Assembly: GCA_965649765.1 (NCBI GenBank)
Contig: OZ287753.1
Coordinates: 7,502,001 to 7,566,000, forward strand
DNA: 64,000 nucleotides
Direction: 5' to 3'
Source: Bispira polyomma
Taxonomy: Eukaryota
In this document: positions 1 to 64,000 of the stretch, piece after piece
How the letters are laid out: each line of letters begins with the position of its first letter
How positions within the stretch are numbered: position 1 is the stretch's first letter
Translations under genes and position numbers: made by a program
The notes under the pieces: generated by a model
Told to the model about the DNA's origin: nothing
Databases searched by the model: none
The model's input: the letters and a program-made list of their open reading frames with translations, nothing else

Positions 1-582
1 TCACATCAATTAGTGATTTAGTGATGTTTCTCACATAGAAATACAATCTAAAATTAAAAAGTATGACGGTCAATCATTAAAATAAATAAGTAACATCAAA
101 GAGCAGGAATTAAGAGATTTAGCAACTACAAATATCCAGTCAGTCTATGTTTACTTGGCCATCTCAAGAAAGTTACCAAGCATGGCTAAATATACTCTTC
201 ACTAGACTTGGATAATAGTCAACTTCTGATGTGGAAAAAGAGTAAAACTATTTTGAACACCACCTATATTTTGCAAATAGTTGTGTAGAATGATTTTAGA
301 ATATAAAACCATTTCTTATATGTGCTTTAATTCTTGTTTGAATAAATATCAATCATTTCTAAGGAATATTTTGGGGGTCTTTCTTTGAGAGGTGTTTATA
401 GTCTGGTCTAACTGTATTAACTAAAAGCCTTGGATATAAATAGAAATTAACATTGACAAAGAACAAGTTCGGATCTTTCTTTAAATAGTCTTTATAGACA
501 GGTCCCACTGTATTAACCATACATGAGGACAACTAAGGGAACTTCTTGGCTTCTTCATGCATATTTTATCTCATTAATGTAC

Positions 583-696
583 CTGTAAAGCCAGCAACAC
601 ATTCGCATGAGAAATCATTTACGAGATCAGTACAGACTCCTTTGTTTTCACATGGCTCTGGAGCACATTCATTAATATTGGTTTCACAGGTATCAC
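583..696 (-). CDS. Array EGF exon [38 protein letters not shown]
   Basis: 114 nt, ttttag/gtacat. Confidence 0.88.
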
Positions 697-9600: not shown

Positions 9601-12600
9601 ATAATATACTTGTATCATTAAACTATGCTTTTCAGAACAAAATAGTAAAAGTGGGAAATTTACTATGTCACATCAATTAGTGTTTTAGTGATGTTTCTCA
9701 AATAGAAATACAATCTAAAATTAAAAAGTATGACGGTCAAACATTATAAAAATAAGTAGCATCAAAGAGCAGGAATTGAGAGATTCAGCAACTACAAACA
9801 TCCAGTCAGTCTATGTTTACTTGGCCATCTCAAGAAAGTTACCAAGCATGGCTAAATATACTCTTCACTAAACTTGGATAACAGTCAACTTCTGATGTGG
9901 AAAAAGAGTAAAACTATTTTGAACACAACCTATATTATGCAAATGGTTGTGCAGAATTATTTTAAAAAATAAAACCATTTCTAATATGTGCTTTAATTTT
10001 TGTGTTTAAATAAATATCAATCATTTCCAAGGAATATTTTGGGGGTCTTTCTTTGAGAGGTATTTATAGTCTGGTCTAACTGTATTAACTAAAAGCCTTG
10101 GATATAAATAGAAATTAACATTGGGAAAGAACACATTGGGGTCTTTCTTTAAGAGGTCTTTACAATCAGGTCTCACTGTGTCAACCATACATGAGGACAA
10201 CTAAGGGAACTTCTTGGCTTCTTCATGCATATTTTTTCTCATTAATTTACCTGTAAAGCCAGCAACACATTCGCATGAGAAATCATTTACAAGATCAGTA
10301 CAGACTCCTTCATTTTCACATGGCTCTGGAGCACAATCATCAATATTGGTTTCACAGGTATCACCTAAAATCACAATTGTTAGTCATAATAATAATATAC
10401 TTGTATCATTAAACTATGCTTTTCAGAACAAATTAGTAAAAGTGGGAAGCTTACTATGTCACATCAATTAGTGTTTTATTGATGTTTCTCACCTAGAAAT
10501 ACAATCTAAAATTAAAAAGTATGACGGTCAACCATTAAAATAAATAAGTAACATCAAAAAGCAGGAATTGAGATATTTAGCAACTACAAACATCCATTCA
10601 GTCTATGTTTACCTGACCATCTCAAGAAAGTTACCAAGCATGGCTAAATATACTCTTCACTAGACTTAGATAATAATCAACTTCTGATGTTAAAAGGAGT
10701 AAAACTATTTTGGACACCACCTATATTATGCAAATAGTTGTTTAGATTGTTTCAAAATAAAAACATTTCTAAAAAAAGTGAAATTTTTTAGAAAGATTTT
10801 AATAAAATTAAGAAACATAATTTTATTGGAGAGTTGAAATTGTTTTCCATATACAGTTGACATACCTTCAAATCCCTCAACACAATCACATGAATATTCA
10901 TTTATTCCATCTACACAAACACCTTCATTTTCACAAAGATGACTAACACAATCATCAATGTTTGTCTCACATCTTCCTCCTAAAATAAGTATCAATCAAT
11001 ATCATTAACAACCTTTTGCATTTACATCACATTACAGATAATAAAATACCAGTTGTAAATTATGATTCTAGTATAGGATGGTCACATTATTTTTTTACAT
11101 AAAAATTTCACTGCAATTTATTTTCTTGTTGGCACAGAAATCAGTAAATCGTACTCATGCTAACATGAGACATGTATATTTGCAAGCTTTTTTTCCAAGA
11201 GAGGTCTTGATATATAGATGTATAATGTCAAGTTGTAAGACTGATCTACACAAAGTTTGATATATTTATTTGAACATTAAAACAGTAAAGGCTAGGAAAT
11301 GGTGGATTTTGGGTTACATGTATAGGTCCAGATAATAACTCCAACCCATTAAAATTCAACTTTTAATCTCAAATGATTCATCACACTCATATAATGTCAA
11401 GTTAATATCTGATGACATATTAAATATTAAAGAGTGTCCCTGATATAAAAGACCCAAAAACCATTATGTTTGTGTTGCATGTTTAGATCTAAATCCTAAA
11501 TCAAGATCACATCTATCAAAATAAAGAATGTGGGTATTATGTCAACAGTAATATTATTAAATTTGAAAAATTATAAACTAGTGACATGAATAAGAAGTAT
11601 GCCAAAATGTCATTGTTACCCCAAAGCGTATTAAATGCTTGGAGAAAGATTTTACTAAAATAAACAAATATAATTTAATGGAGAGTTGAAATTGTTTTCC
11701 ATGTACAGTTAACATACCTTCAAATCCCTCAACACAGTCACATGAATATTCATTTATTCCATCTTCACAAACACCTCCATTTGCACAACGATGTCCAACA
11801 CAATCGTCAATGTTTGTCTCACAGCTTTTTCCTGAAATATATATCCATAAATATCATTGACAACCCTTTGCATTTGCATCACATTAGAAATAGCAAAATA
11901 CCGTTGTTTTGAGGACAATGATATTGCCATCAACAAAATGCATATTAGGTGTTTTTCAGGGATAAAATGTATAAATTATTTTCAAATATAAAATTTGTCT
12001 GATCTAGTTTTTCTGTGACAATCATATAAAAAAAAGAATATTTAATAAAAAAAGACATCAGGAACAAATTAAAGTGGCATATTACCATGTATACAACAAC
12101 ACTAATGTGTTCAATAGTATTTAAAAATTGTGAATTGAATCATTGAATTTTATTTGTAATTGAAGTACAGAAGACCATTACATAAAATTATGAAAACAAA
12201 TCGTGGACATGGATAACTTATATCAAGGAATACACTCTATTTTGAAGAATGGAAATACTGATAAAAAGTTAGTTGTATTTTGCATCAATATTAAAATCTA
12301 GTATAAAGATAATAATTTTTAATATACACTTTGTGACCACATGGGAAAGGGCCAACTTTATTGAACAATAACAGTCAACTGGCGACTTTGACATTAACTA
12401 ACTGGGAGAGCACCTGCATCTTGAGGTGAGACCCAGTTGGCATGTTATGCAACACTTATACCGTGGTCACACTGGGCTTACGTTTTGATTCGCACAAAAA
12501 ATGGCTAGCGCAAGGTAAAACATAGTGAAATGTAATGAAACACAAGCAGAATGTTGTAAATGTAAGTAAACATAAAAATGGGTGAACAAGATGGTCCCTT

Positions 12601-14091: not shown

Positions 14092-14161
<70 letters not shown>

Positions 14162-17100
14162 ATTTCAAAAAAACTACACATAGATAGCATAAGTAAGAAA
14201 ACTATTAACATTTCTATTAACTTACTAACACTTATTTGTTCATTAATTGTAATAACTTGCACTTTAAATGTTGCACAGCCAAATGAAATGAGTTTGAGGT
14301 CAAGGTCATAAGATGGTAGTTTGACCTTGTGTGTGAGGTTTTGAAAGGTAAGAGGTCAGATGTAGTTTGGGAGATTTATTTATAAATCTTTAGTTTATAA
14401 ATGTTTAGCTTCTATGTACAACTATACAGAAAATTTAGATAAGAACTAAAATTTTAACATGCCAATAAGCAAGTAAAGGGTTTAAAAAACCCAACACATA
14501 AGATAAAATATAAGAGTAAGGGAACTCATAGACAAAGCAACATGGTAAATATAACCAATGATGACTAAGAATATAATGTTAGTAGCAATATGGTAAGTAT
14601 AACCAATCATAGCTAAAAAGAAGAAAATAAAGCAATATGGTAAATATAACCAATGATAACTACAAAATAAAATAACATGCTAGTACAGCAATATGGTAAA
14701 TATAACCAGTGATAACTAAAATTAAAATGCTACTGTAGCAATATGGTAAGATTAACCAATCATAGCTTAAACAATTTTAAAAGAATTAAAGTCCTAAGGC
14801 AAAGAAGTGAGTGTTAAATCCACAATCCTTAGATATTCTACAAATATGTACAAGGGAGGAGGGTTGGGAGATTTTTGATGTTGTTAGTTTGATTTCTGAC
14901 TTAATAATGAGCTTATCATAGAAAGGGCGCCAAAGCGCTGGGGAGAGTAAGAGAGATTTGTCTTCTGACTTATCAGTGAGAGTATAAGAAAGGCGGGAAA
15001 TGCCGAGGAGAGTGGAGGTGTTATCTGAATGCAGCATTGGGGTGAGGAGGAGTGACTGTGATAAGCAAGTAGTTTGAAAATAGAAGTACAGTAAAGTATA
15101 GCATTTCCGCGGCTGACTAGCCATGCTACTTCGTGGCAGTGACGAAGACAGGTACAACTTTTTAAAGTTGCTGGTCTTGTGGACCTGAAATATATTTTTG
15201 TAAACTTCATGCACTAAATACGCCAGAATGTCGTTGTTACCTATAATTATTAAATGATTCGGGAAAGATGTTCATAAAATGACTTCACTGGAGATTTGAA
15301 ACTGTTATCCATGTACAGTTGACATACCTTCAAATCCTTCAACACAGTCACATGAATATTCATTTATTCCATCTACACAAACACCTCCATTTTCGCAACG
15401 ATGTCCATCACAATCGTCAATGTTTGTGTTACACCTACTTCCTAAAATGAATTTATTTGTCAATATCTGTGACAAGCCTTTGCCTTTACACCTCATTAGA
15501 GATATTAAAATACTAGCTGTAATTGATGCTTCTGAAATAGGATGGTCACATTATTTTTTGATACCAAAAATCTGTAATTTATTTTTTGTTGTCGGCACAG
15601 AAGTAAAAAAAAATATTTGTGACAATTTTATTCGCTAAATTTGGGATTGATTCATTTCGTTACCTTGATGTTTTAGCTGCACTTGAATCCATGAATAAAA
15701 TAATTTTTAAAATAACCATAAGTTGGATAAGTAATATAAATGAGTGCATTCTTGCTCAATATTTTAAGCAAGAAAATGTGATATGTACAATGTACTTTCA
15801 TGGTAAACCTTGGCCATTCTTTATTGAAACTGTAGCAGTCCATCAAAAACCTAGGAAAATGTCGATTATGTCTGAAGTAAAGTATATCGTACAGATTGTG
15901 TGGCAAATTTTTAGGGCATTTGTTATCCATTTCTTTCCACAGATAAACAGCTACTATATGTTTGAATCCCTATGATTACTGTGCCATTCATTGACTATCT
16001 CTAATTGTCTACAACTTTATGTACATTTCTAGTACCAAAGAGTTTGAATTGACTTGTTTGTTTTTTTACGTCGCTTTCAACAGCTTTGGTCATATTGAGA
16101 CGGCCAGGTTCAGTGGTTGGCACTGGAAACTGCTGACCCATGGCAAGTACCTGACAAACTTTTTCACATGAAGAAGGAATCCGTGTGATTCGATCCCAAG
16201 AGGTGAGAGGCCAGTGATTTTAAAACAGACGCTTATATCCACTAGGCCACCGCTGTCCCTAGCTGTAGTACCAAGTTTTTTTGAATCTCTATTCGTAATA
16301 CCTTCAAATCCTTCTTGACATTCACACACATAGCCATTGATTCTGTCTTGGCATTGCCCTCCATTCTGACAAGGGTTTACAGCACAGTCGTTTATGTTGG
16401 TTTCACACCTGCTGCCTACAATGGACCAATTACATGTGCTAAAACCAATTATCGCCAGCAGACCGGCTGCACACACTGAAATAGCTTTGGTGCATGTTTG
16501 GGCAATATGCTTAAACGTATGCCACAATGCACCAACTAACCCTTATCTACCTGAAACATTATGTAGTAGTTAAAACAAATTTACTTATTGTCACCAATTG
16601 TTTGTTCTGTTATTGTAATTTTGTACGAGGTCATTATGGCTTGATGTCTTCTTGTAGTCATTTGTGGCAGGTTTGTACATGGGGTCATTGTAGGTTTAAT
16701 ATGTTTTTTTCTGGGGTTATGGGTATAGTATTTTTCCTATTTTATGTGGCTGTCAGTGTTTTTGAACTTCACGTGGAAGGTGCTGAAGGTGAATATATTT
16801 CTTGGTGTTTGTTTAACCAGTGGATGAGGTAATGTTCATAATGTATAGTAATGGCTGTAGTTAAAAAAAATATTTTATCCTTTTTTATACCTTATGTGAA
16901 AGTTTTTAATTGTTGTAACATGAGGGACACAATATCTAGTAAATATAACTTCACAGGAATATACTTCACTTGAATATATTCACAACACAATGAAAATATA
17001 CCATACAATATTTACGCAGGTCCACAAAAAGTTAATTTTGAATACAACACAATTTTGTTGTGTTACCTTTGTTATGAAAGTTGTGTGTTTCTTTCAATTG

Positions 17101-20100
17101 TTGTTTTTTGGGGGGCCAGAAAGTTGCATTGCCCAGTGGGGTTGTGCTGCTGGTATTTATGTTGGTGTGATTTGTGAAGTCTCAATTACCTTCATGTCCT
17201 GACACTGGTGTATTCATCTTCACCTTTATACCCCGACACACAGTTACAGGTGTATTCATCCTTATCTTTATACCCTGACAGACACAGGTGTATTCATCCT
17301 CACCTTTATACCCTGCCACACAGTTACAGGTAAATTCATCCTTACCTTCATATTCAGGCAAACTCCTATGTATTCATCCTTACCTTCATATTCTGGCAGA
17401 CACCTGTGTATTCATCCTTACTTTCATATTCTGGCAGACTCCTGTGTATTCATCCTTACCTTCATATTCTGGCAGACTCCTGTGTATTCATCCTTACCTT
17501 CATATTCTGGCAGACTCCTGTGTATTCATCCTTACCTTCATATTCAGGCAGACACCTGTGTATTCATCCTTACCTTCATATTCAGGCAGACACCTGTGTA
17601 TTCATCCTTACCTTCATAGTCAGGCAGACACAGGTGTATTCATCCTTACCTTCATACCCTGCCACACAGTTACAGGTGAATTCATCCATACCTTCATATT
17701 CTGGCAGACACCTGTGTATTCATCCATATCTTCATACCCCAACACATAATTACAGGTGTATTCATCCTTACCTTTATATTCTGGCAGACACCTGTGTATT
17801 CATCCTTACCTTCATATTCAGGCAGACTCCTGTGTATTCATCCTTACCTTCATATTCAGGCAGACTCCTGTGTATTCATCCTTACCTTCATATTCAGGCA
17901 GACACCTGTGTATTCATCCTTACCTTCATATTCAGGCAGGCTCCTGTGTATTCATCCTTACCTTCATATTCAGGCAGACTCCTGTGTATTCATCCTTACC
18001 TTCATATTCAGGCAGACTCCTGTGTATTCATCCTTACCTTCATATTCAGGCAGACTCCTGTGTATTCATTCTTAACTTCATATTCAGGCAGACACCTGTG
18101 TATTCATCCTTACCTTCATACCCTGCCACACAGTTACAGGTGTATTCATCCTCCCCATCGACACATGCGCCACCATTCTGACAGGGGGAAGACTCGCATT
18201 CATTGAAGTCACAAGGGGTGCCTAAACAGACCAAACAATAAGCTTGTAACCAACTTTAACACAGGTCAAGTTGTACTACACTACTACTGAGAACCGTTCT
18301 TATTTCTCAGCAAGTTAAAGCGCATCGTGTTTGTATGTGTGTCTGGGGTGTATTCTATAACCTTCCTAAAAAAATAGGAAACACAAATGAAGTCATCGAT
18401 TTGAATTGATTTTCAGTATGACTATTTAACAACTGCTTATTATGTGGTGATTGACAGTTCATTAGTGGAGAAAAGCAGTACATTGTGGTTTGTCAAGGTT
18501 TTTTCTGTAGTGCAAACCACCAGCCGTCAGCAATCTTTACACCCTCTGGATATTAAACCTGCCACCCAGTCTTAAGTTGCTTCACAATGATTTAGACAAA
18601 TAGTGACTTTTAAATAGTACAGTATTTGATCTGTTGGACAAAGATATATTGCGATTCTTTTGCTACTAAATTGTTAATGTCTAGTCTGTGCACATGTATT
18701 GTATTCTGCATTTTCAACGCCTTATTGATATAAGGCATGCTCCAACGACAGAATCGATTAACCAACTGAGAAAATAATAGCAAGATCATAATAAAGGATG
18801 TGGAGGTGTCCAGGGAGGGAATTAACAGGAGTTTGTTTTCTCCTAAACCCAGAGTGTCTTTCTAGTGATCTAAAATCAACTGAGAGACTATTATATAACA
18901 CCGGGGCATGGTTCTAGATCCAACCATCTTATTGGGTTTAACAGAGAAAACAAAGTTTTCTCTCTTGGGGTTACTATAAGACAGATGAGTGGCAAGGTAG
19001 GAAGGCTGTTGAAAGCTTTAAAAGTCGTAACATAGAACACACATAGCAAAAACATACTGAGGTTTCTAATATTATATGTGTCAAAGCATTATATACAGTT
19101 TATTAGACTAATCAACCGATGTCACAAAGGGTGTGCTGACAAAATGTCGATGGACAAAATGCAACTTTGTGAAGGTAAACAAAATGCTGGCCCGTTTTGG
19201 AGTTGAACAAAATGCCAGTGATGTCAAAACATCTTCCAATATGTCAATATCTCATAGGAATGTGGATGGTTGGCTACAGGATATTCCGTCTTAGTATCAG
19301 TTACTAGAGCACCCGTGCAATGCAAAGCAACTCTCTGAGAACTAGATCAAGTTTTCGACTGCCATTTCATGGCATTTGCAGCCACCGGTGACAGAGTGTG
19401 CACCATTGGCAAGTTAAACACATAACAAATAAAAAGAATCAGTTAGTAATTGTGATTTCTTCATTTCTCATTGGTGGGAATAAGTGTGAATTAGTGGGTG
19501 TTAGTAGTTTTGTGTTAGGTCCTCGGCATGTTCATATCAAAAAGGCCACGAAACAAAATTTGGTAGATGCCACGAATATTGACAAATGTTTGTCTATGAG
19601 ACCAGGCCATTATATCATACAAAAATACAAAAAGAATCGTCTTTTTATTTAGTTTGTGGTTGTATTGATTAATTCTATAGCTGTACACAATATGATAACT
19701 TTGAGTTAATAGTTTTAGCGTGTACCGGGGGAAGACTGCTACGGGAAAAATACCATAAAATTTTGTAAAAAATCAACGTTTATGGCTACATCTTTACGTT
19801 TAATTGTTACTATTTATGTTTTTCTACCCTTTTTACATTAAATTTGAGTAATTTTACTGTTTTATGTTGTGAATTTAGCTAGAAAATTATAATAGCCGAT
19901 TATCGCCCACTTCGTTTGGCGGGAGTGGGCCGTACTCTACTATAATATTTTGTAATAAGATCTACATCTGCACGGTTATTTGTTGGTATTTATGTTTTTT
20001 CTAACCTTTTTACATTAAATTTGAGTAGTTTTGCTGTTTTATGTTGTGAATTTAGCTAGAAAATTATAATAGCCGATTATCGCCCACTTCGTTTGGCGGG

Positions 20101-23100
20101 AGTGGGCCATACTCTATAGATCTATAATATCTGTAATAAGATCTACATCTCCACGGTTATTTGTTGTTATTTATGGTTTTCTCCCCTTTTTTACATTGAA
20201 TTTGAGAAATTTTGCTGTTTTATGTTGTTAATTTAGTCTCGTTTTGCTGTTCTATATTGTAAAAATTTTTCCAAATTCTGTACATTTATTTATTACTATT
20301 TATGATTTTTCTACTCCCTTTACATTTACTTTTTATCTCATTTTGCTGTTCTATATTGTAAATTACATGTTGGTGTGGTTGTACTTAGCTTAAGGTCAGG
20401 CTATAGTGTGGGGTGCTAGGGTGCCCGTGAGTCGCCCACGGGACGAAGAATTATGCGGTGAGTTGTAGGGACAAGCTTTCGGAGGCTCCCCACTGTTGAG
20501 TTCAGGTTAAGGGCTTCTTTTTTTCTACAACCTCACTAGGCATGTTTCTGCTTTGGGTTGTCCTTTTTTCAGCACTTTTTGCTGTGGCTATGGCTCATAG
20601 GTATGAGTTGTTGCATCACAGTGTTGCTCATACATCAGCAACCTCATTGGCTAAAGTGGCAAAAAATTTTCATACACATGTTCTTGTCGTAAATTTCCTA
20701 CCACCATTAATGGAAGAGGTCTTGTCTTGTTACTTTTACTCGCCGGCGATGTGTCCCTTAACCCTGGTCCTGTCATGCTCGGGGTGTTAAATGCTAGATC
20801 CGTGAGGAACAAGGGTCCACTCCTTGCAGATATTGTGACATCGCACGACCTCGACTTCCTTTGTGTTACTGAGACCCATGTCCGTCTATCTGATACGGAT
20901 AGCTTCCTACGGTCTGTTACTCCTCCAGATTTTGTGTTTCCTCAAACGCCTCGTCCCTCACGGATTGGTGGCGGTGTTGGTTTCTTCATCAGATCCTCCT
21001 ACAAACCACATAAAATAGATTCTCCTGTCTATCAGTCCTTTAAAAATATGGTGGTGTCAATTGGGCTTCATGGCCGCTCACTGTTGCTTGCCTGTGTCTA
21101 TCGCCCCCCAGGATCATGTACCTGTAATTTTTTAGAAGAATTTATGTCTTTTGTTGGTTTCTTGTCGTCCATTAACAGTTCATATCATATCTGTGGTGAC
21201 TTTAACATCCATGTTGATGCACCAGTTGGTGACGGTCATAAATTTATGACCTTTCTTGATTCATACGATTTAAAACAGTTAGTTAGACAACCTACCCATC
21301 TGCATGGTCACATTCTGGACCTTATTTTATCTCCTTGTGATCAGGATACTATTGTGGATGTCAAAGTCTGTGATTTCATATCGGATCATGCATTAGTCAA
21401 ATGCTCAATTGCCACTCCCCCTCAGGTGGCTCATATTCCTAATAAAGTGCATTATAAGAGGTACCACCGTATTAACATGTCTGACCTTCGTACTGATCTT
21501 GAGAGTACTTCCTTTATTAAGTCACCTACCAATTCTGTAGCCAAACTTTATGAACAATACATACATGACTTGGGTGATGTACTAGATAAGCATGCACCAC
21601 TTGTATCCAGAATGTCAAAGAAAGAATCTGTGCATTGGCTCTCTGATTCTTACCGACGGGCTAAATCTCTCAGGCGCCAATATGAAAGAACTTGGCGAAG
21701 GGCCAAGAATCCATTAAATAGAAGTCGACTACATCGCCAGATTGCTCGGTGCAATGTACTTGTTAACGAGGATAAGTCGGTGTATCACAGTAAACTTATC
21801 TCTGACAACAGTCACAACTTCAGGAAGCTGTGGCACGAACTGCGCAAGACCCTTAATATGGATACCAATGTGGCACTCCCGTCCCATGATTCCTTTTTTT
21901 CGGACAAAATTAAGAGAATTAGGGATACTTTTATTGTCTCTGGAACTAAAATTGATGTTCATCCTCTTTCTGATCCGCCAGAAATTATTGCCTTTGCCAG
22001 AGTCTCTGAAGATGATGTTAGTAAAATAATAAGTAACTCGCCTACAAAATCCTGCATGTTGGATCCATGGCCAACATCTCTTATTAAAGAATGTAGTGAT
22101 ATATTACTACCATCCATTACAAAACTTGTAAACTGCTCACTTACGGAGGGACTTCTACCTGATGGTTTTAAAACAGCTGTGGTTACTCCTCTTATTAAGA
22201 AGGCTTCTCTTCCAGTTGATGACCTGAAGAATTATCGCCCTGTATCTGGTCTTAGTTTCATATCAAAACTGGTTGAACGCGTGGTTGCTAGGCAACTGTT
22301 AGATCACATCTTTGTCCACGACTTAGACAACCCATACCAGTCTGCGTATAAAACTGGTCATTCGACTGAGACAGCTCTTCTGTCTATAAAAAATGAAGTT
22401 CACTTATCTTTGTCAAGAGGGGAACCTACTGCCCTGGTATTGATCGACCTCTCTGCTGCCTTTGACACCATTGATCATTCCACGCTTCTCAGTTGTCTTC
22501 AGACTTGGTTTGGAGTTACAGGCTCTGTTCTTAAATGGTTCACTTCCTACTTAACTGATCGTTATCAGTCGATAAAAATTGGCTCTACTCTGTCCGATCT
22601 TTGTAAACTCTTGTTTGGTGTCCCTCAAGGTTCTGTTTTGGGCCCTCTGTTGTTCTCATTATACACTGCTCCTCTCAGATTGGTTATTGGCAAATACACA
22701 GGAATAAAGTTTCATTTTTATGCAGATGATACCCAAATTTATGTACACCTATCCCATAAAAACACATCTACTGCCTTTGAACAGTTGAACAGGTGTCTTG
22801 ATGATGTGAAAGAGTGGATGTCAACTGGTAAACTCAAACTTAATCCCGACAAGACTGAGTTCATAATCTTTGGCTCAAAACAACAGAGGGATAAGTTGAA
22901 AGCATTGTTTCCAGTTGACATCCTGGGTAGCCCTTTCAGTCCAGCTGATTCTGTCAAGAACCTGGGTGTATGGTTTGACTCTGACTTTTCTTTCTCTAAA
23001 CACGTTCAGAGTGTCTGCAAAAGCTGTTTTATGCAACTCCGTGACTTTAGACGTGTCAGATGGTTTCTCACTTATGATGCTTCTATACTTGTGGCCAATG

Positions 23101-26100
23101 CTTTTGTCAGTAGTAGACTGGATTACTGCAATTCACTTTTCAGGAGTCTCTCAAAGTTTAATTTACGCAAATTACAATGCATTCAAAATAGTGCAGCTAG
23201 AATTGTGTCAAACACCAGTCGATACACTAGTATAACTCCTGTTCTTAAGAAATTGCATTGGCTCCCTGTTGGACAGCGTTCAGTGTTTAAGACAGCTACA
23301 CTTGTTTATAAGTTTCTCCACACTGGGTTTCCAAAGTAAATGCCCCATATCTTTCCACTTACAGTAGTTCCTACAATACCAGATGTAGTCAGAGTGGTAG
23401 TAATTTCCTTGTTGTTCCGAAGTTCCACCCATCTACTCAAAGGTCGGTAAAACAGTTTGGTCACAACTTTGCTTTTGATGCTCCCATTGTTTGGAATGCT
23501 TTTGCTGATGTGATTTGTGCTTCTAAAGCATACCCACCTTAGTCTCAATCATCCCCCGGCGCGCTCTATGTTGCTGACCCTTTGTCTGTCCCTTGATTTT
23601 GGAAATTGGATAACTGTCTTTTGTGCTGGTGCGCCTTAGAGTCCCCTTTGTTAAGGGGAGATTAAGCGCAATAAAAGTCTAATTACAATTACAATTTGAC
23701 CGACCTATAAGTTCCTATTTACATAAATATCATTATTTTAAAATATTTCCATTTTTTTTGCCGTTGTATAGGACGTAGTAATGTGCCCTGTCAGATTTGT
23801 TAAGTTTTACTAATGGTAACTGCTCTGTCGCTCACCGTGTGTATCATCAGTAAAAAAAACCCAAAAGAATAGTCAAGGACAGATAATTTGGTTCATAAAA
23901 TGTTATGACATTGTTCATGGTACTGGTATATCAATTATTATATCAATTGAAGTTATGTATTCACTGTTTTAATAGAACTGCCATCCATTTACTAGAGTCA
24001 TCGACCGCGGTTCGGGGGTCAATTTGAAAATTGTTTGTAAATGTAAGGTCTTTAATATGTTTTGATGTTTTGACAATGGGGGCATTTTGTCCACCCACAC
24101 CCAAAAATAGCCCGACGTTAAGTCCACCTTTGCACAATTGACCGACATTTTGTCTATCGGAATTTTGTGCTGGATTCGTCACAAATATTGACCTTGTAAA
24201 AGTTCAGGTCAAGGTCACAATTTGATAGGCTTCCAATAATAAACCAAATCTAGTTGCTTACCCAATATGCTGTATGGGAGGAGCAGGGTGGTGACTCTGT
24301 GTTGTGACTCAACTAAAATCTTGATATCCTTAACACCTAATTATAGGTGTATGTCAACAGGATTTGATAACTAAATTATTATAAAATGTACCTAAATTAT
24401 GCTTACTTTCCCGAATTTGTCTTCTATAAACAGGATAAAAAGGTTCATTACAAATAAAAATGGGAGACTTTTAATTTATTATGATCTCAGAAGAAAACAT
24501 TTAATCCTTCTACAAGTTGTCTGGGATTAAATCCAATAATAATAAACACACTGGCACCTTAAGTGGGGCAGCCATTAAGTCCACAAGGATAACACCAAGT
24601 CAACATTCGAACTTTAATTAATAGCTGGTGTTTATTATTTGTAGATCTCCTTTTCTGCTACACTATATTCTACTGTAGATTGAGTTGTTCACCTTCAAGC
24701 ATTTTGCTAGGATATTTACTCACTCCATTACATGTATTGTGTCCGGCTTTTTGACAGTACCAAAGTCCTTACCTCACACTTACAATAAAAGCCTTCTCAG
24801 GTGACATGAATAAGCCCCACTCTTGTGAGCAAATCCTTTTTACAAAAGCACCACCACAGAGTTTTGGTCAAATATTTGACCTTCCCGGTGTCAAAAGAAG
24901 AAGTAGTAACAACATAGTGTTGATAAAAGAAGTCAATGAAACTCATTAAACAAGGTAAATAAAAAATACATGCCGAATAATTGTAAACGTTTACGATTTC
25001 TTATTTTGATATGACAATTCTAACCCTATTTATAGTCACAGAGTACACACACTAACTAAAAGCTTATCCACCTGATCCCCCTTCTATTCAGGACTACTGA
25101 CATACATAGCATGTCAGCCATTTTAAAACATAGAAAACATTTTATTCACAAACATTTTCTATTAAAACTGTTTCTTTAAAAACTACTATGTAAACCTGGT
25201 CACTGTGCTCTAAGGAAAGAATATAAGTTTCTTTGGTATATTGTATTTATTTTTGTACAAAGACTGCTTTAAAAGTCGTAAAAACAAAGATGAAAAAAAT
25301 CATGATTTTGACAATACCAGGATTTTGTCCAGCCACCCCAAATATTGACCGACATTTTGTCCACCCCAGCAAATTTCACCGGCATTTTGTCCACCGGCAT
25401 TTTGTTTGATCACCAGAATATAAAACCGAAATAAATGGAATTTTTAACAGAGGTACTAAGTTATTTTTAGCAGTGTTTTATCATTATATATAATGTGACA
25501 GTTGCTTTTCAGTTCCTACATACGTCATCGGAGGGATAGAGGCATTTCTTCCCCATCATCGCCCCCCCCCCTCCCCCCGTGCCCCCTATTTCATTTTGTG
25601 ATGAGGTCAAATGGTCAAAAGCCCCTCTTTCCCCGCCGTTCTCTATATGCATACAAATTGTTGAAAAAATGAGCTCACTTAAGTGGGTGTTCCATTATAG
25701 TTATTTGGTCCCGGACCTTTCTAATTTTGAGGTCCGGGACGAGTTTGTATAGGTCCGAGGCAAAACCGAACATGGTATTCAGGAAGGATATTCAACATGT
25801 TTCATATTTCAAAAAAGTTGCCCAGACTATCTTCTCGATCCCTAAAAACGGGAAGGTCGGCATCGCTGAATAAGTTAAATCTGACTGTCATTACGTTAGC
25901 ACTGGCCCGTTAAAACGTATAGGTCAGGGGGAGAAAACGGGCTAAACAGGGGATCAGGAAGAATATAAGACAATTTTCGTCACATAGCAGTCCCGACCTT
26001 GATTATGACAAGTAAGATTGTGACGGACTGGGGGTAGATCCTATCACCAATACGATCGATCCTAGGGTGATGCGTCTGATCCTATCGTCCGATCCTGGTA

Positions 26101-29100
26101 AGTTCGATTCTAACCTGGGTCGGCGACCCTGGGCCGTCTTAGTATGGACTTTAGTTTCGATTGTGGTCGTTGTCCTGTTAAAACGGGATGCAATCAGTTG
26201 GATCTGGAAGGTCGCCCCGCACTTACATTTTCCTGCCCAAAATATAACATTTATTGATTTTTCGCCCCTATCTCTAAATCTGGCCCACATTGCCAATCGT
26301 ACTTGATACTGGAACACCCACCTAACATTAGATCTTTATTCTGAAGATGTCACTGCCTATTATCTTAAAAAAGTGAAAACTGTAAAAAACTGTTCATGTC
26401 TTTGTAAAATAAACTTTTCAAGTGTCCAAAGCTGTTTGACAAAAACCTAATTTGCCTGTAAATATCGATCAACTTCTATTAAACTAAGGGATTCTGTCCT
26501 AATCATAAATGCTGAATGGGGTGTTCCCCACGATTCACTGTGCTCTACCAAAGGGGGGAAAAAACACATGGATTCGTCACCTGGGACTCTGTGTGTTATG
26601 GCTGGGTCCAAATTTTGCGTTTCACGAAAGTGACGCCAATGCAAACTAGGCGATCTACAAATTGCACTCATCAGCACTAAATATGCATGTTTTTTAGCAT
26701 TCGCCATGCTTTATCAACTCGACCCTAACCCAATGACAACTTGTTATTTATGCAATTAATGTGGTAAGGTGGCAGTTTTTTTCAGTCAGTGCATTTTTCT
26801 TGCAATGGCGATACATGCAACAATGGCGATTACTGCACAGATGATCAATTCTGCCCACTGTAATCTCGATTGAGTTCTTCTAAACTGGCTTACAGGTCAA
26901 ATATAGTGATCGGCGATCATTTAAATCTGTAAATTGAAATCGTACTTTGGGAATTTTTATCTGTCTCGAGTTAGTATCAGCTACATGGTTAAAAAAGGGG
27001 GGTACGTCCTGGAAAAGTGCCCCATGGAGAACAAGAGAACATCACTCTGGTCAGGTCACTTTCATTGCCACCACTTTGGTCAAACTCAAAATAGTGAAAA
27101 ACGTGACCCACGGCAAAAATGGTGGTGACGAAAGATGATATCCACTATGACATTTCTGTACTCCTATGTTACAGTATAATGTCCCTACCCACTATGATAT
27201 TCCTCCACTTCTATCTCACACTACAATGTCTCTATCCACCATGACATCCCTGTACTCCTATTTTACACTATAATGTCCCTACCCACTATGACATCCCTGT
27301 ACTTCTAGATTACACTATAATGTCCATATCCACTATTACATCCCTGTACTCCTATATTACACTATAATATCCTTATCCACTATGACACCCCTATACTCCT
27401 ATTTTACACTATAATGTCCATATCCACTATGACTCCTACATTACACTATAGGGGGCCGCGGTGGCTTAGTGGTTAGCTAGCATTGCGCTTCACAATCACT
27501 GGTGTCTCACCTCTGGACAGCCTGAGTTCGAATCCCGTCGATGCCTATGTGAGAAAGGTGGTAGTTCCTTACTGTGGGCCGCTGGTTTCAGTGCAGAACC
27601 TTGATCAACTGTATGCGTGTTTCTTCCAGCATTTCTAACTACCCGTCCCAATATAACCTAAACAGATACTAGAGTGGACGTTAAATATCCAAATTCAAAT
27701 TCTAGATTACACTATAATGTCCCTACCCACTATGATATCGCTGCACTCCTGCCGACACTCCTCCCAGCGCCAGGACCTCCAGTACGAGTACTCTCTGTCT
27801 GTAGAACACCAGGGGGAGTCATTGTTGGTTGTGATACACACACTGTACTCATTGTCCTCGTAGATAAAGGGGATCACACAATCACTGTGAGGCACCCAAT
27901 TACATTCTGTCCTGATATCATCTGTAAAACATGGGTAGTGTAAGCACTGTACACTAAATCAAATTGTATAAAGGTTACATCAGGTTATCATGAAACCATT
28001 TGCTGAATTTCTTTGAGAATACGAAAACTGTCTATTCTGCATGGTACACTTGGTACACATGGTCGACACTCCTATCGCCAGAACCTGCATTACAACAACT
28101 AGCTAATCTCTCCTGAGTATACCTGTACTTAAATACTCTCTCCTGAGTACACCTTTTCTAAGCTATTCTTACCTCAGTACTTACTTATTCCATCTTTGGT
28201 ACACCTGTACTTACCTATTCTCTTCTCAGTACACCTTTCCTTAGCTAGTCTCTCATCATTAAACCTGTACTTACCTATTTTCTCCTCAGTACACCTAAGG
28301 GGCCGCAGTGGCCTAGTGGTTAGCAAGCATTGCGCTTCACAATCACTGGTCTCTCACCTCTGGGCGGCGTGAGTTCAAATACTGTCGATGCCTATGTGGG
28401 AAAGGTGGTAGTTCCTTACTGTGGGCCGCTGGTTTCAGTGCAGAACCTTGACCAACTGTATGCAGTGTTTCCTCCAGCGTTTCCAACTATCCGTCCCAAT
28501 ATAACCTCAAACAGGTACTAGAGTTGACGTTAAATATCCCAATTCAAAAAAAAAATTCCTCAGCACACCTGTACTTACCTATTCTCTCCTGAGTATACCT
28601 TTCATTAGCTATTCTCTCATCAGTACACCTGTACTTACCTATTCTCTCCCCGGTACACCTGTACTTACCTATTCTCTCCTGAGAACACATTTCCTTAGCT
28701 ATTTTGATCTCAGTACACATGTACTTACTTATTGTCTCTTTGGTAAACCTGTACTTACAAATTATCTTCTCAGTACACCTGTCCTTACCTATTATCTCAT
28801 CAGTACACCTGCCCTTACCTGTTATCTCCTCGGTACACCTGTCCTTACCTATTCTCTCCTCAGTACACCTGTACTTACCTTTTCTGTCCAGAGTACACCT
28901 GTACTCTGTACACTCCTCCCACCTCCAGGATCTATACCACACATACGCCTCATCAGTACTACACCATGGGTAGTCACGGTCATCATAGTTTGCCGTTGTA
29001 CACCCCTCATACTGGGTACCATCATAGGTGAATGGAATTTGGCAATCAGCATGGGGTATCCACCCACAAGTCTCCGTAGTTACTAAAATATACAGTTTCA

Positions 29101-31775
29101 GGTTATAGCATTTCCAATTTTTTATAAACAAATACAGTTACATGTTACCAAAAAGATGATTGAATATGTCATGTTACATCAGTTGGTTGGTGAATTTTTT
29201 TCACTTTGAAATGAGATCCCATTCTCCATCTGACCTTGTGCAATCTAATCAGAATTCCAACAGTTCACGTCAAATTCAGTTATTATATGGTAGATGGACA
29301 GGAAAAGGTCAAACAAATTCGTCAAGATTACAAAATCAACTGGCACAACAAGTAAGTATTCAGTTTGCTCCTATAAAAGAGGAAGCGAAGGAAACCTCGC
29401 AGATTTCATGCCACAAATTCAGAAATTTAGAAAGACTGTAAAAATCGAAAAATGGGATTTACTTTTTTGTAGTTTAATATGGATGATAATACAATTTATA
29501 CAAAACCCCATTAGTCATTATTAAGGTCTCTCCAAAGCTGTCTGAGATGTGATATTATAAAGTACATCACTATAGGAATAACACCAGACAAAGCATGGTA
29601 TATGCAGAATTTTACTATGATTCAATGTTTAGGCCCACAGAGGCGTAAAATTTAGGCCCACAAAGGGGTCAAATTCTGCTCATACCATGGTTTGAAGCGT
29701 GTTATTTCTTTTTCCAGCATGACAAAGTAATAAAAAAAATTGAAAATTTAACATAATAAATGTACATAAAAATAGGCCATTCCATCTTACTTACCTTGCC
29801 AGGGGAACTTATGTAACAGCCAATAAGTAAATGCTGAGTTTTACCAACGCTTTTGGCCAATTAAAATTGCCGACACATCTGTTTTATGCTAGAATGTGAT
29901 ATTTATGTTCTTGTACCATATTTAGTTGTAGAGAGACAATAGTCATGTCACCCATATGACCTTGGCCAAAGAACCAGTGTAATAATTAACCTAAAAGTGT
30001 CATATCAAACTTCTGTGAATCCTTAGTTCCCCCATAATTTATAACATTCAACAACCTGATACATTTTGTAAAGATGTCTGCATTATATCTGAAAAATGTT
30101 CGCCGTGAGCTTGGTAAAATTGAGTGAAATAATAAAAAAAGACTTACTACAAGCTTGAGTTTCACTGGCTTGTCCTGAAGGAGAAACGGTAAACTTTTTA
30201 TAGTAATAACAAATTTTTTCTTTTTTTTTAAATATTGCATTGTATAAAATATATACATAATAATTACAATGCAATACAGAGGTATAATACAGAGGTACAA
30301 TACAGAGGTACAATACAGAGGTACAATACAGAGATACAATACAGAGATACAATACAAAGGTACAATACAGAGGTACAGTACAGAGTTATAATACAGAGGT
30401 ACAATACAAAGATACAATACAGAAGTAAAATACAAAAATACAATACAGGGGTACAATGCAAAGATACAATACAGAGGTACAATACAGAGGTACAATACAG
30501 AGATACAATACAAAGGTACAATACAGAGGTACAATACAGAGTTACAATACAGAGGTACAATACAAAGATACAATACAGAAGTAAAATACAAAAATACAAT
30601 ACAGGGGTACAATACAGAGGTACAATACAGAGGTACAATACAGAGTTACAATATAGAGGTACAATACAGAGGTACAATACAGAGTTACAATATAGAGGTA
30701 CAATACAGAGGTACAATACAAAGATACAATACAGAAGTAAAATACAAAAATACAATACAGAGGTACAATACAAAGATACAATGCAGAAGTAAAATACAAA
30801 AATACAATACAGAGGTACAATACAAAGATACAATACAGAAGTAAAATACAAAAATACAATACAGGGGTACAATACAGAGGTACAATACAAAGGTACAATA
30901 CAGAGGTACAATACAGAGATACAATACAAAGGTACAATACAGAGGTACAATACAGAGTTACAATACAGAGGTACAATACAGAGATACAATACAAAGGTAC
31001 AATACAGAGGTACAATACAGAGTTACAATACAGAAGTACAATACAAAGATACAATACAGAAGTAAAATACAAAAATACAATACAGGGGTACAATACAGAG
31101 GTACAATACAGAGGTACAATACAGAAGCACTAGATACAATAACACAATACAACACAGCAATACAGTGTAATAAAACAAATACTGTATCATAATAATACAT
31201 CAATTATTGAAATATACATGTACTTTATATCCTTACTATATTACATTACTACCTCTACACTGAAATAACGAGATATCACTTTCAATATATCCCTATTTGT
31301 ATAACAAAGTAAAATATATGTTTATACATATGCTTTTTAATATCAATAATGAGAAATACTACTAGTTGAAGGAATGGACGATCAGAAAACTAATATTTCT
31401 ATATAACATAGAGTCGTTTTAAAACACTTTAATCTATTAAAATTTATTCAAATATTACTCATACAAAAGGAAATTTTTTTTTTTTTTTTGTGATTAAAAG
31501 TGTGTTTATGAAATCGAACATCCAGTTTAACAGAAGTTCAGATAATAGAGGCTCTACTATATTTTCATTACAATGAATATCCTATACAATTAGCAGGGTT
31601 TTTTTTTTTTTTTAAACAAAATATCTTTCACACCATTGTGTATACATTTTTAACAGCTAGTCTCGTCATGTAAAAGATAAAATATCTATATATATTAAAA
31701 GATACTTAATACTTAATTCGCTTTACCTATTAACCACAGTATGCCTACAAGGCGATGTATCATTGGCTTTTCCAT
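583..31775 (-). CDS. Spliced gene for a secreted or cell-surface protein: signal peptide + 2 FN2 domains + >=17 Notch/fibropellin-type calcium-binding EGF repeats; 21 coding exons in window, 3' end beyond left edge
   Basis: All exons have canonical splice sites, phase-1 junctions and join in frame: [43 protein letters not shown]...(FN2)x2...[14 protein letters not shown]...(EGF)n. Confidence 0.88.
1371..1484 (-). CDS. Array EGF exon (TNIDEC/CENEG variant)
   Basis: 114 nt, ttttag/gtacat. Confidence 0.88.
2162..2275 (-). CDS. Array EGF exon (TNINEC/CENEG variant)
   Basis: 114 nt, ttttag/gtacat. Confidence 0.88.
2956..3069 (-). CDS. Array EGF exon (TNINEC/CENEG variant)
   Basis: 114 nt, ttttag/gtacat. 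Confidence 0.88.
3131..3948 (-). repeat. 3' LTR (~820 bp) of the Gypsy element
   Basis: Minus strand starts TGTTACA after the PPT, has TATATATAA (~3708-3716) and AATAAA (~3210-3215), ends ...CCCGTCA at host junction. Confidence 0.75.
3131..5091 (-). mobile_element. 5'-truncated Ty3/Gypsy LTR retrotransposon (Gmr1-like domain order): RT C-terminus + RNase H, PPT and 3' LTR
   Basis: ORF 4142-5092 with MPFG, YVDD and DAS...E...TDH...ADALSR; PPT aaggggggagg (3949-3959) abutting LTR start TGTTACA; host repeat resumes ~5092. Confidence 0.92.
4142..5092 (-). CDS. pol: Gypsy pol fragment: reverse transcriptase C-terminal half + RNase H
   Basis: YVDD catalytic motif, RNase H D-E-D residues, stop directly after ADALSRSCS. 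Confidence 0.92.
   Translation of the reverse strand: MAKEISAFVTPDGLYQYKVMPFGMKNSQATFQRLMNICLRNLEGVEVYVDDIVIFSDTWEEHLKRLEQVLFQLKQANLTVNLSKSDFVKAKVVYLGHVVGHGVVTPIKAKVESIIDYPIPRNKKSLMRFLGMLGYYRKFCKNFSDVTAPLTELLKKNVKYHWSETCQKAFDKVKNVLCSEPVLTAPDFNRPFRLAVDASDVGAGAVLLQTDDEDIEHPICYFSTKFNVHQKNYSTIEKECLALILAIKHFDIYISSSSKPTIVYTDHNPLVFLHKMKNKNRRLLNWSLVLQEYSLQIEHVKGKDNICADALSRSCS
5508..5621 (-). CDS. Array EGF exon (TNIDEC/CENEG variant)
   Basis: 114 nt, ttttag/gtacat. Confidence 0.88.
6301..6414 (-). CDS. Array EGF exon ([10 protein letters not shown] variant)
   Basis: 114 nt, ttttag/gtacat. Confidence 0.88.
7093..7206 (-). CDS. Array EGF exon (TNINEC/CENKG variant)
   Basis: 114 nt, ttttag/gtacat. 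Confidence 0.88.
7881..7994 (-). CDS. Array EGF exon (TNIDEC/CENEG variant)
   Basis: 114 nt, ttttag/gtacat. Confidence 0.88.
8672..8785 (-). CDS. Array EGF exon (TNINEC/CENEG variant)
   Basis: 114 nt, ttttag/gtacat. Confidence 0.88.
9460..9573 (-). CDS. Array EGF exon (TNIDEC/CENEG variant)
   Basis: 114 nt, ttttag/gtacat. Confidence 0.88.
10251..10364 (-). CDS. Array EGF exon [38 protein letters not shown]
   Basis: 114 nt, ttttag/gtaaat, phase 1-1. Confidence 0.88.
10866..10979 (-). CDS. EGF exon 6 (114 nt) [38 protein letters not shown]
   Basis: cbEGF consensus, ttttag/gtatgt. Confidence 0.9.
11718..11831 (-). CDS. EGF exon 5 (114 nt) [38 protein letters not shown]
   Basis: cbEGF consensus, ttcag/gtatgt. 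Confidence 0.9.
12459..13095. mobile_element. Non-autonomous PIF/Harbinger-type MITE
   Basis: TIR core TGGTCACACT...AGTGTGACCA, TTA on both flanks (12456-58, 13096-98). Confidence 0.7.
13502..13615 (-). CDS. EGF exon 4 (114 nt) [38 protein letters not shown]
   Basis: Six Cys in place, ttcag/gtaggg. Confidence 0.85.
13925..13941 (-). pseudogene. Remnant 3' end of a destroyed EGF exon with intact donor
   Basis: TGTTGAGGTTTTTGAAG|gtatgc plus ~110 bp of intron homologous to that following EGF exons 3, 5 and 6; rest of exon replaced by unrelated DNA. Confidence 0.7.
14093..14157. repeat. (TA)n microsatellite
   Basis: Pure TA run. Confidence 0.98.
14537..14770. repeat. 5 copies of a ~47-56-bp unit (agcaatatggtaaatataaccaat...)
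   Basis: Directly visible. Confidence 0.85.
15328..15441 (-). CDS. EGF exon 3 (114 nt) [38 protein letters not shown]
   Basis: cbEGF consensus, ttttag/gtatgt. Confidence 0.9.
16040..16258 (-). mobile_element. Degenerate tRNA-derived SINE
   Basis: Minus-strand A box GGTGGCCTAGTGG, B-box-like GGATCGAATC, tail related to other SINEs here. Confidence 0.65.
16302..16415 (-). CDS. EGF exon 2 (114 nt) [38 protein letters not shown]
   Basis: cbEGF consensus, AG/GT, phase 1-1. Confidence 0.9.
17186..18113. repeat. 38/42-bp minisatellite derived from EGF exon 1 3' end + splice donor
   Basis: Minus unit ...TATGAAG|gtaaggatgaataca...; some units retain exon sequence CACCTGTAACTGTGTGGCAGGG. Confidence 0.92.
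18114..18221 (-). CDS. EGF exon 1 (108 nt) [36 protein letters not shown]
   Basis: cbEGF consensus; gtttag acceptor, GAAG|gtaagg donor. Confidence 0.9.
18380..18570 (-). mobile_element. Highly degenerate SINE fragment
   Basis: ggagaaaagcagtaca...gtcaaggtt matches reverse complement of the SINE core. Confidence 0.45.
19720..23695 (+). mobile_element. L2/CR1-group LINE, near full length (5' boundary approximate)
   Basis: APE-RT ORF, 3' stem-loop GCGCCTTAGA...TTAAGCGC, (TTACAA)n tail; ~176-bp repeats in presumed 5' region. Confidence 0.88.
20727..23339 (+). CDS. LINE ORF: 2A-like motif + APE endonuclease + reverse transcriptase (premature stop near C-terminus)
   Basis: LNARS, TETH, GDFN, SDH (APE); [28 protein letters not shown] (RT); homology continues past stop at 23339. 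Confidence 0.93.
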   Translation: MLLLLAGDVSLNPGPVMLGVLNARSVRNKGPLLADIVTSHDLDFLCVTETHVRLSDTDSFLRSVTPPDFVFPQTPRPSRIGGGVGFFIRSSYKPHKIDSPVYQSFKNMVVSIGLHGRSLLLACVYRPPGSCTCNFLEEFMSFVGFLSSINSSYHICGDFNIHVDAPVGDGHKFMTFLDSYDLKQLVRQPTHLHGHILDLILSPCDQDTIVDVKVCDFISDHALVKCSIATPPQVAHIPNKVHYKRYHRINMSDLRTDLESTSFIKSPTNSVAKLYEQYIHDLGDVLDKHAPLVSRMSKKESVHWLSDSYRRAKSLRRQYERTWRRAKNPLNRSRLHRQIARCNVLVNEDKSVYHSKLISDNSHNFRKLWHELRKTLNMDTNVALPSHDSFFSDKIKRIRDTFIVSGTKIDVHPLSDPPEIIAFARVSEDDVSKIISNSPTKSCMLDPWPTSLIKECSDILLPSITKLVNCSLTEGLLPDGFKTAVVTPLIKKASLPVDDLKNYRPVSGLSFISKLVERVVARQLLDHIFVHDLDNPYQSAYKTGHSTETALLSIKNEVHLSLSRGEPTALVLIDLSAAFDTIDHSTLLSCLQTWFGVTGSVLKWFTSYLTDRYQSIKIGSTLSDLCKLLFGVPQGSVLGPLLFSLYTAPLRLVIGKYTGIKFHFYADDTQIYVHLSHKNTSTAFEQLNRCLDDVKEWMSTGKLKLNPDKTEFIIFGSKQQRDKLKALFPVDILGSPFSPADSVKNLGVWFDSDFSFSKHVQSVCKSCFMQLRDFRRVRWFLTYDASILVANAFVSSRLDYCNSLFRSLSKFNLRKLQCIQNSAARIVSNTSRYTSITPVLKKLHWLPVGQRSVFKTATLVYKFLHTGFPK
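25683..26322. mobile_element. Harbinger-type MITE
   Basis: TIR GTGGGTGTTCCA...TGGAACACCCAC flanked by TAA. Confidence 0.75.
27140..27726. repeat. ~49-bp minisatellite derived from FN2 exon 2 3' end + donor (SINE inserted)
   Basis: Unit cactataatgtccctacccactatgacatccctgtactcctattttaca mirrors the exon/intron junction ATCATAGTGG|gtagggacattatagtg. Confidence 0.85.
27451..27701 (+). mobile_element. tRNA-derived SINE
   Basis: A box TGGCTTAGTGG, B box GTTCGAATCC, (AAATTC)n tail, ~15-bp flanking direct repeat. Confidence 0.9.
27727..27921 (-). CDS. FN2 domain exon 2 (195 nt)
   Basis: [17 protein letters not shown]...PWCST...WEEC; gttttacag acceptor, GTGG|gtaggg donor, phase 1-1. Confidence 0.9.
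28105..28878. repeat. 30-bp minisatellite derived from FN2 exon 1 3' end + donor (SINE inserted)
   Basis: Minus unit GTACAGGTGTACTGAGGAGAGAATAG|gtaa versus exon end GTACAGGTGTACTCTGGACAGAAAAG|gtaa. Confidence 0.9.
28299..28556 (+). mobile_element. tRNA-derived SINE (same family)
   Basis: A/B boxes, same body, TSD-like tcctcag(t/c)acacct. Confidence 0.9.
28879..29082 (-). CDS. FN2 domain exon 1 (204 nt)
   Basis: [16 protein letters not shown]...PWCST...WEEC matches the FN2 C-x-x-PF-x-Y...C...PWC-x-T...W-x-x-C pattern; tattttag acceptor, AAAG|gtaagt donor. Confidence 0.9.
30148..30174 (-). CDS. 27-nt microexon (G)QASETQAC, carrying the probable signal-peptidase site T-Q-A|C
   Basis: Acceptor tttctccttcag, donor gtaagt, phase 1-1. 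Confidence 0.72.
30271..31140. repeat. 13-bp satellite (tacaatacagagg)n in intron 1
   Basis: Directly visible, with recurring variant blocks. Confidence 0.95.
31727..31775 (-). CDS. Coding exon 1: signal peptide start [16 protein letters not shown](G)
   Basis: ATG at 31775-31773, hydrophobic h-region, donor ATAG|gtaaag in phase 1; joins the microexon in frame. Confidence 0.72.
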
Positions 31776-62375: not shown

Positions 62376-62419
62376 CTGAAATACAAGTTGGTACAGGGAA
62401 GGCGACTCACAAAGTGACA

Positions 62420-63973: not shown

Positions 63974-64000
63974 TTGAGAGGCGACAGGGATCTGCAGCCC

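Follow-up and report, generated by a model that had tools for sequence, protein, structure and literature searches.

An EGF-rich gene of Bispira polyomma with paired FN2 domains, 51 EGF domains and a furin-type site, possibly the precursor of a released extracellular rod

In a stretch of 64,000 nucleotides of Bispira polyomma DNA (the window, G000:C6:7502001-7566000, from a genome of 1.035 Gb in 75 contigs), which is AT-rich and laden with retroelements, an initial annotation had noticed a signal peptide, two FN2 domains and at least 17 calcium-binding EGF domains at 10866..31775, and this raises the question of what protein the locus encodes and what that protein might do. Six-frame translation of the window gives two FN2-like and 17 EGF-like segments, every one on the minus strand, and the elements do lie where they had been placed, with the FN2 exons at 29082-28879 and 27921-27727 scoring 32.2 and 37.9 bits against the Pfam fn2 (PF00040) cut-off of 22.2. 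The extent needs correction, as the 17 EGF exons run from 18221 down to 583 and the interval 10866-31775 contains only six of them. Examination of 200 kb of leftward sequence places a further 33 kb of the gene beyond the left edge of the window; an FN2 pair carried by a long stalk of calcium-binding EGFs had therefore been recognised correctly, but from the first third of the gene only. The C-terminus recovered to the left brings the stalk to 51 EGFs and shows what had been overlooked: a furin-type site and a transmembrane helix, followed by a short tail.

31727..31775, minus strand: exon 1 (49 nt), start codon (ATG at 31775) and predicted hydrophobic core of the signal peptide, from splice sites, phase and hydropathy
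30148..30174, minus strand: exon 2 (27 nt), probable end of the signal peptide and Cys25, placed by splice sites and phase only
28879..29082, minus strand: exon 3, FN2 domain 1 with six cysteines and the aromatic residues of the pocket retained (Pfam fn2, 32.2 bits)
28177..28905, minus strand: 30-nt minisatellite derived from the end of exon 3, its repeats carrying the splice donor in phase and free of stops
27727..27921, minus strand: exon 4, FN2 domain 2, 55% identical to domain 1 (Pfam fn2, 37.9 bits)
18114..18221, minus strand: exon 5, Cys162 (outside the EGF pattern) and EGF1, from Pfam EGF and cysteine parsing
10866..16415, minus strand: exons 6-10, five diverged 114-nt calcium-binding EGF exons starting at 16415, 15441, 13615, 11831 and 10979, from Pfam and splice phase
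583..10364, minus strand: exons 11-21, the first 11 of 40 near-identical 114-nt EGF exons, period about 790 bp, from translation and splice phase
1..582, minus strand: intron 21, cut by the left edge of the window, beyond which the gene continues
G000:C6:7473611-7501904, minus strand, left of the window: exons 22-50, the remaining 29 near-identical EGF exons
G000:C6:7470601-7472731, minus strand, left of the window: exons 51-54, membrane-proximal EGF47-51
G000:C6:7469916-7470044, minus strand, left of the window: exon 55, encoding the furin-type motif RQRRSRSGRQEAD and the greater part of the transmembrane helix
G000:C6:7469017-7469195, minus strand, left of the window: exon 56, end of the helix, 53-aa tail and stop (at G000:C6:7469017)

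Joined by their coordinates, the 56 minus-strand exons can be read through without a stop as a single frame of 2,215 aa, and all 55 introns have canonical AG/GT ends and compatible phase. The predicted protein comprises, in order, a signal peptide, two six-cysteine FN2 domains, 51 EGF domains, a furin-type RQRR and a transmembrane helix, and ends in a tail of 53 aa. Exons 1 and 2 both end in phase 1, as do nearly all later exons, and the leader that they encode reaches a Kyte-Doolittle value of 2.54 over its best 9-mer, this hydropathy being the basis of the signal peptide call. The ectodomain holds an even number of cysteines (320); two of them, Cys25 and Cys162, are left unpaired by domain parsing, flank the FN2 pair and might act as a staple of the head. 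Phase, order and the even cysteine count together suggest that the FN2 and EGF exons belong to one gene. Three sequence runs from one study (X1-X3) cover the introns and have no exon-skipping joint among the 15 of 71 joints listed, so we take them to be DNA.

The earlier statement that the window lacks DSL, LNR and CUB domains holds, as these, along with LamG and ZP, gave no match in 75 stop-free minus-strand frames of at least 42 aa taken from the large introns at the 5' end of the gene, from its upstream flank and from its 3' end. We rejected a continuation of the gene into downstream TSP1-EGF-CUB exons, since the frame stops at the end of exon 56, with polyadenylation signals after it; those exons form a neighbour gene 20 kb past the stop (G000:C6:7443000-7449200, minus strand), with TSP1-like, EGF, CUB-like and EGF exons as named from motifs. 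Minisatellites repeating an exon end and its splice donor follow four exons (window 28177-28905, 27139-27433 and 17207-18120; G000:C6:7469442-7469915), and the one after FN2 domain 1 provides eight extra in-phase, stop-free donors whose use would insert 10-residue cysteine-containing repeats. Mobile elements are also present: a reverse-transcriptase fragment within the EGF array (window 4145-5095), duplicated along with the blocks; what we take from its sequence to be a LINE-like remnant at about 20650-23300 of the window, in the 9.5-kb intron between FN2 domain 2 and EGF1; and a minus-strand reverse transcriptase/RNase H frame (Pfam) followed by recombinase-like frames at 61388-64000, presumably a DIRS/Ngaro-type element truncated by the window edge.

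Calcium is established to stiffen tandem cbEGF stalks, and each such domain adds 2.5-3 nm. Cysteine parsing of the present protein gives exactly 51 six-cysteine EGFs with spacing 4-5-8-1-8, and 47 of them carry the calcium-binding motif (D/N-x-D/N-D/E before C1, C3-x-D/N-x4-F/Y), as is characteristic of a cbEGF array; computed from the per-domain length, the stalk would measure about 130-150 nm if extended. All seven distinct EGF exons of the window that were scanned pass Pfam EGF; with Pfam EGF_CA the scanned window exons fall below the cut-off and EGF47 lies above it. The EGF region contains 460 acidic and 20 basic residues, one O-glucose site, two O-fucose sites and 42 matches to the EOGT consensus C5XXGX(T/S)GXXC6, for which an excerpt of PMC3650022 supplies both the pattern and the precedent of Dumpy.

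The 40 near-identical EGF exons all lie at this locus, repeat with a period of about 790 bp and are 94.7-100% identical to one copy, with 24 distinct sequences among them. The six cysteines are invariant in all 40, the calcium-ligand positions vary only between D and N and between E and D, and no copy has a stop, a frameshift or a broken splice site. With 20 amino-acid-changing against 7 silent variants (pN/pS 0.67), purifying selection within the array appears to be only weak. Higher-order blocks are present, as a long intron with a retrotransposon fragment occurs three times and a 6.5-kb block of seven exons differs from its twin at only three positions; given this near-identity, the EGF count may be polymorphic or assembly-dependent. 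In a read-depth test of 19 variants, six of eight single-occurrence variants stand at about single-copy depth and two at 5-10 times that; four multi-copy variants roughly match their depth (for example 14 copies against 15.6 times), and the other seven fit poorly or are not judgeable. Variants common to the copies reach 16-19 times single-copy depth. The depths from the three DNA runs support a many-copy array without fixing its exact number.

At the membrane-proximal end, RQRR at 2115 is the sole RX[KR]R of the protein and the helix follows at 2144-2162. RRSR and RSGR overlap RQRR, about 20 residues above the helix, so that three overlapping RXXR sites are present. This predicted cleavage site stands ahead of the helix as is expected of ZP-domain proteins, and it is invariant in the paralog described below. 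Only about 30 residues separate EGF51 from the helix, which leaves no space for a Notch-like heterodimer domain or a ZP domain. The 53-aa tail has no tyrosine and no PDZ-type end, the protein terminating in THHK. For mollusc EGF-ZP proteins, an excerpt of PMC9290575 suggests that furin sites before the helix may free the proteins into the shell matrix, and also that the majority of EGF-ZP proteins that carry one probably remain at the cell surface.

Both head domains score as FN2, retain the four core cysteines and the aromatic pocket, and have six cysteines in all, as do six other aligned FN2 exons of the same genome. A model of FN2 domain 1 has a pLDDT of 82.8; its fold matches are FN2-containing structures, none at E <= 0.001, the best including uPARAP/Endo180 (all E > 0.02). 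Sequence searches with the FN2 domains recovered MMP-2, MMP-9, fibronectin and PDC-109. The pocket residues of PDC-109, given as Y30, W47, Y54 and W58 in an excerpt of PMC2823774, have counterparts in FN2 domain 2 and, by alignment, in domain 1, while the rim residue Y60 is replaced by Glu. Such a pocket is general to FN2 domains, so on sequence grounds it would not specify the ligand.

The initial annotation had called the architecture unusual for an invertebrate. FN2 domains as such are described as largely restricted to chordates in an excerpt of a review (PMC3308698). Against this stand the 43 places at which the present genome by itself matches Pfam fn2, together with named FN2 proteins from sponge, coral, copepod, prawn and rotifer, those of coral, prawn and rotifer including FN2 combined with EGF. 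An EGF end motif is borne by seven of the 259 FN2 proteins listed (the best 150 of 335 from one search, and 109 not already counted from the best 120 of 125 of another), and the six of these that were inspected lack an FN2 pair ahead of a long EGF stalk, among the matches listed. The six-cysteine type beginning C-x-W-x-P (window 28892-29071) was seen in 20 of the 150 representatives listed, most of them transcripts without a name (P0003, P0009, P0054, P0072 and others), and a dinoflagellate protein carries a similar domain; a tree of 67 FN2 domains (58 columns) does not separate descent, transfer and convergence as its origin. Six-cysteine FN2 loci elsewhere on C6 and on C1 had no EGF array within the 60 kb and 80 kb examined, respectively. 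Elsewhere in the genome, one open frame of 1,368 aa (G000:C9:36837717-36841190, minus strand) has 13 Pfam fn2 matches with Thr-rich linkers between them.

A genome search with exon 55 found one other locus, on a different chromosome (G000:C8:58114129-58240257, minus strand), which comprises a candidate leader exon, 24 alternating two-exon modules, 43 EGFs (42 of one unit) and six 3' exons, with 49 EGFs in total. Its last six exons are homologous to exons 51-56 and share their phase pattern. Over 208 EGF codons the base is 55% identical between the paralogs (pS 0.83, pN 0.29), and the helix and tail, at 33% identity, are the least conserved part, although the tail ends are weakly similar. The basic motif RQRRSRSGRQEAD is identical at 13 of 13 residues with 10 of its 13 codons changed, which is the best evidence, from sequence comparison, that both genes may be expressed and that the motif probably matters. 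A degenerate pattern for this motif occurs at exactly two places in the 1.035-Gb genome, namely both paralogs (control, 0). No third member was found in three further genome searches, in which two weak matches on C9 and C3 proved to be ordinary EGF exons.

The amplified units are 96% and 99% identical in nucleotides within the two genes but 66% identical in nucleotides and 55% in amino acids between them, from which it follows that the stalks were homogenised separately. Despite these different units the paralogs agree in EGF number (51 and 49), in the EOGT consensus and in the 10 acidic and 0 basic residues of the commonest unit; the 42 copies of the paralog comprise five distinct exon sequences, none with a stop, frameshift or broken splice site. 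It had been proposed that the head is presented at a tunable distance, for which no isoform or allele speaks; 49 against 51 EGFs points instead to a constrained stalk length, albeit from two genes. The heads are different: the Pfam fn2 genome scan has no match within the paralog interval, and the head there is built from a module of about 120 aa in two exons, present in 24 copies with an odd count of 11 cysteines (9 in three copies), 16 of the copies being near-identical with a 2,008-bp period. This module gave no credible Pfam match (14 exon frames) and no PDB sequence match of note, and fold searches with one of its exons gave nothing better than Z 3.3 and E 0.5, three-finger/TGF-beta-receptor folds being common among the matches. 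It may be an uncatalogued cysteine module, with no more than a faint hint of a three-finger-like fold.

The order of domains matches no named family within what was searchable, in agreement with the earlier reading, and every membership tested failed overall. A tandem calcium-binding EGF run is shared with Notch, DSL ligands, Crumbs and fibropellins. Unlike Notch, the protein has no LNR, heterodimer domain or ankyrin repeats, with its some 30 residues from EGF51 to the helix and 53-aa tail (the genome has six LNR matches, none on C6). DSL ligands differ in that the head exons here are FN2, with no MNNL/C2 or DSL domain. Crumbs has Laminin G domains and a C-terminal ERLI, whereas here there is no LamG match and the C-terminus is THHK; fibropellins are secreted, with a CUB domain after EGF1 and a C-terminal avidin-like domain, neither of which is found here. 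Mannose receptors such as uPARAP/Endo180 share the FN2 fold, the pocket and a membrane anchor, but that family has a cysteine-rich domain, one FN2 and C-type lectin domains, against two FN2 domains and neither of the other types here. BSP and ELSPBP1 likewise have tandem FN2 domains with the choline pocket residues, bar the Glu for Y60, but they are small secreted proteins of FN2 domains only, in contrast to 2,215 aa with a stalk, a helix and FN2 domains of the six-cysteine type. Dumpy carries ZP and DPY modules, which are absent from this gene, and to our knowledge has no FN2 head. It is otherwise comparable, being described in an excerpt of PMC3650022 as a giant, transmembrane, largely extracellular EGF-repeat protein with a matrix role and EOGT sites in 86 of 300 EGFs, against 42 of 51 here. 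The mollusc EGF-ZP shell matrix proteins have in common with it a signal peptide, EGF domains, a furin site and a transmembrane helix, but, as far as the excerpt of PMC9290575 goes, two EGFs and a ZP domain rather than 51 EGFs, no ZP and an FN2 head; a ZP domain, as in EGF-ZP proteins, Dumpy and VERL, is neither found nor accommodated here. Eater and Nimrod proteins, from excerpts of PMC4359741 and PMC4073527, also combine a long EGF-like array, a single helix and a tail without known domains. Their NIM consensus CxPxCxxxCxNGxCxxPxxCxCxxGY and CCxGY motif, as given in the excerpt of PMC4073527, are absent here (spacing 4-5-8-1-8), where calcium-binding EGFs, a separate FN2 head and a furin motif are found instead.

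Uncharacterised invertebrate proteins of coral (XP_022789314.1, P0109), prawn (XP_064112099.1, P0013) and rotifer (P0248), together with the unnamed P0113 and P0123, also contain both FN2 and EGF domains; P0113 has a C-terminal hydrophobic helix too, and in P0123 FN2 precedes EGF. Order or number differ in all five (alternating, EGF first, or one EGF), and in none of them does an FN2 pair precede a long EGF stalk. The search for orthologs gave no candidate with FN2 domain 1 alone and 0 of 63 by EGF51 alignment (proteins of up to 2,000 aa). Metagenome scans matched 0 of 179 stretches and, in a second scan, 1 of 289, this sole match being a chance one, out of frame and on the strand opposite to a bacterial gene that is presumably GTPase-like. 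No paper on an FN2-FN2-EGF(n)-helix architecture was found in the non-subscription literature, where 'fibronectin type II' also matched 'type III'.

Taking the exon chain, domains, motif and paralog as read from the DNA, we infer what lies past this anatomy. Our tentative hypothesis, which is quite possible yet falls short of an even chance, is that the product is a type I membrane precursor from which furin, cutting a short way above the membrane, releases an acidic, calcium-stiffened EGF spacer rod or tether with an FN2 tip, in an extracellular matrix or coat; the adhesive or matrix role suggested initially is compatible with this. The leader would direct secretory entry, calcium at 47 of the 51 EGFs would stiffen the stalk and O-GlcNAc could be added at up to 42 EOGT consensus sites. 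Cleavage at RQRR or at the overlapping RRSR/RSGR would then free the ectodomain, as the halves would not be held together by a Notch-like heterodimer domain. The FN2 pair may bind a collagen-like or choline-lipid ligand through the aromatic pocket, and the conserved EGF47-51 base may dock a partner common to both paralogs, so that a variable head would sit on one surface and the conserved base on another. Unequal crossing-over would homogenise the stalk while selection retains its length, charge and cysteines. The invariant stretch exceeds the need of a furin site, hence the basic motif may serve another purpose, and the weakly similar tail end kept in both paralogs would be unneeded if the anchor were simply discarded.

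It is this tail-end similarity, weak as it is, that also suits an anchored capture or adhesion receptor, Eater-like or mannose-receptor-like, in which the FN2 head is raised above the glycocalyx for collagen, microbes or cells and the basic site allows regulated shedding only. We regard such a receptor as unlikely but worth serious attention. The type I topology and short tail without known domains are as in Eater, which has 32 EGF-like repeats according to an excerpt of PMC4359741, the collagen receptor uPARAP/Endo180 is among the best fold matches of FN2 domain 1 (all E > 0.02), and exchangeable heads would suit recognition. A receptor would not, however, readily account for the strict conservation of a multi-basic motif in which three RXXR sites overlap, nor for a tail without tyrosine or PDZ-type end that is, together with the helix, the least conserved part, and a family of only two members contrasts with expanded immune families. 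Gamete recognition, which had also been suggested initially, would make this a gamete-coat or sperm-surface protein like abalone VERL or mammalian BSP; the FN2 pair has a BSP-type pocket, and homogenised tandem repeats with a furin site before the helix resemble egg-coat proteins (VERL repeats and egg-coat furin sites being described in an excerpt of PMC13361971), yet there is no ZP domain and nothing speaks specifically for gametes, so that we find this improbable.

An equally doubtful reading makes the calcium-binding polyanion itself the main job, in a biomineral matrix protein whose heads anchor it to an organic scaffold. The excess of 460 acidic over 20 basic residues would suit it, as would the enrichment of EGF domains in a brachiopod shell proteome (PMC13425148, excerpt), but acidity is usual for calcium-binding EGF repeats. 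That only a short core matters, the stalk length being a neutral by-product of repeat instability or assembly inflation, seems to us very improbable. Near-identical blocks in the array, as few as five distinct sequences among 42 copies in the paralog and the weak pN/pS would be consistent with it; the intact frames and splice sites of 40 of 40 copies here and 42 of 42 there, depths of up to 16-19 times single-copy for shared variants, and a long intron with its retrotransposon fragment in three copies rather than two argue against it.

Returning to the released rod, one may speculate further, although we think it unlikely in full, that the two genes represent a new family of released molecular rulers. 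These would have a conserved base and 13-residue processing motif, a rod rewritten independently in each paralog by concerted evolution while selection holds its charge, its O-GlcNAc site and its length of about 50 domains, and plug-in heads (an FN2 pair or 24 11-cysteine modules) that choose the surface to be bridged.

The surprise is limited, as a head with an EGF stalk, a furin site and a helix is a familiar design and domain shuffling is common; since FN2 and EGF mixtures occur in other invertebrates, the novelty is that of a variant of a known design. What is added is a pair of paralogs whose heads have been exchanged, whose stalks were rebuilt independently and whose processing motif is invariant. 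Such a family could be missed, because these genes collapse in short-read assemblies and are automatically named 'fibropellin-like' or 'Notch-like'. If our hypothesis is correct, the paralogs would also provide an invertebrate FN2 ligand that can be tested, along with an uncatalogued cysteine module. The two paralogs would then be a natural experiment on long EGF stalks, in which selection has kept length, acidity, cysteines, the O-GlcNAc site and the processing motif while the stalk sequence and the head have turned over.
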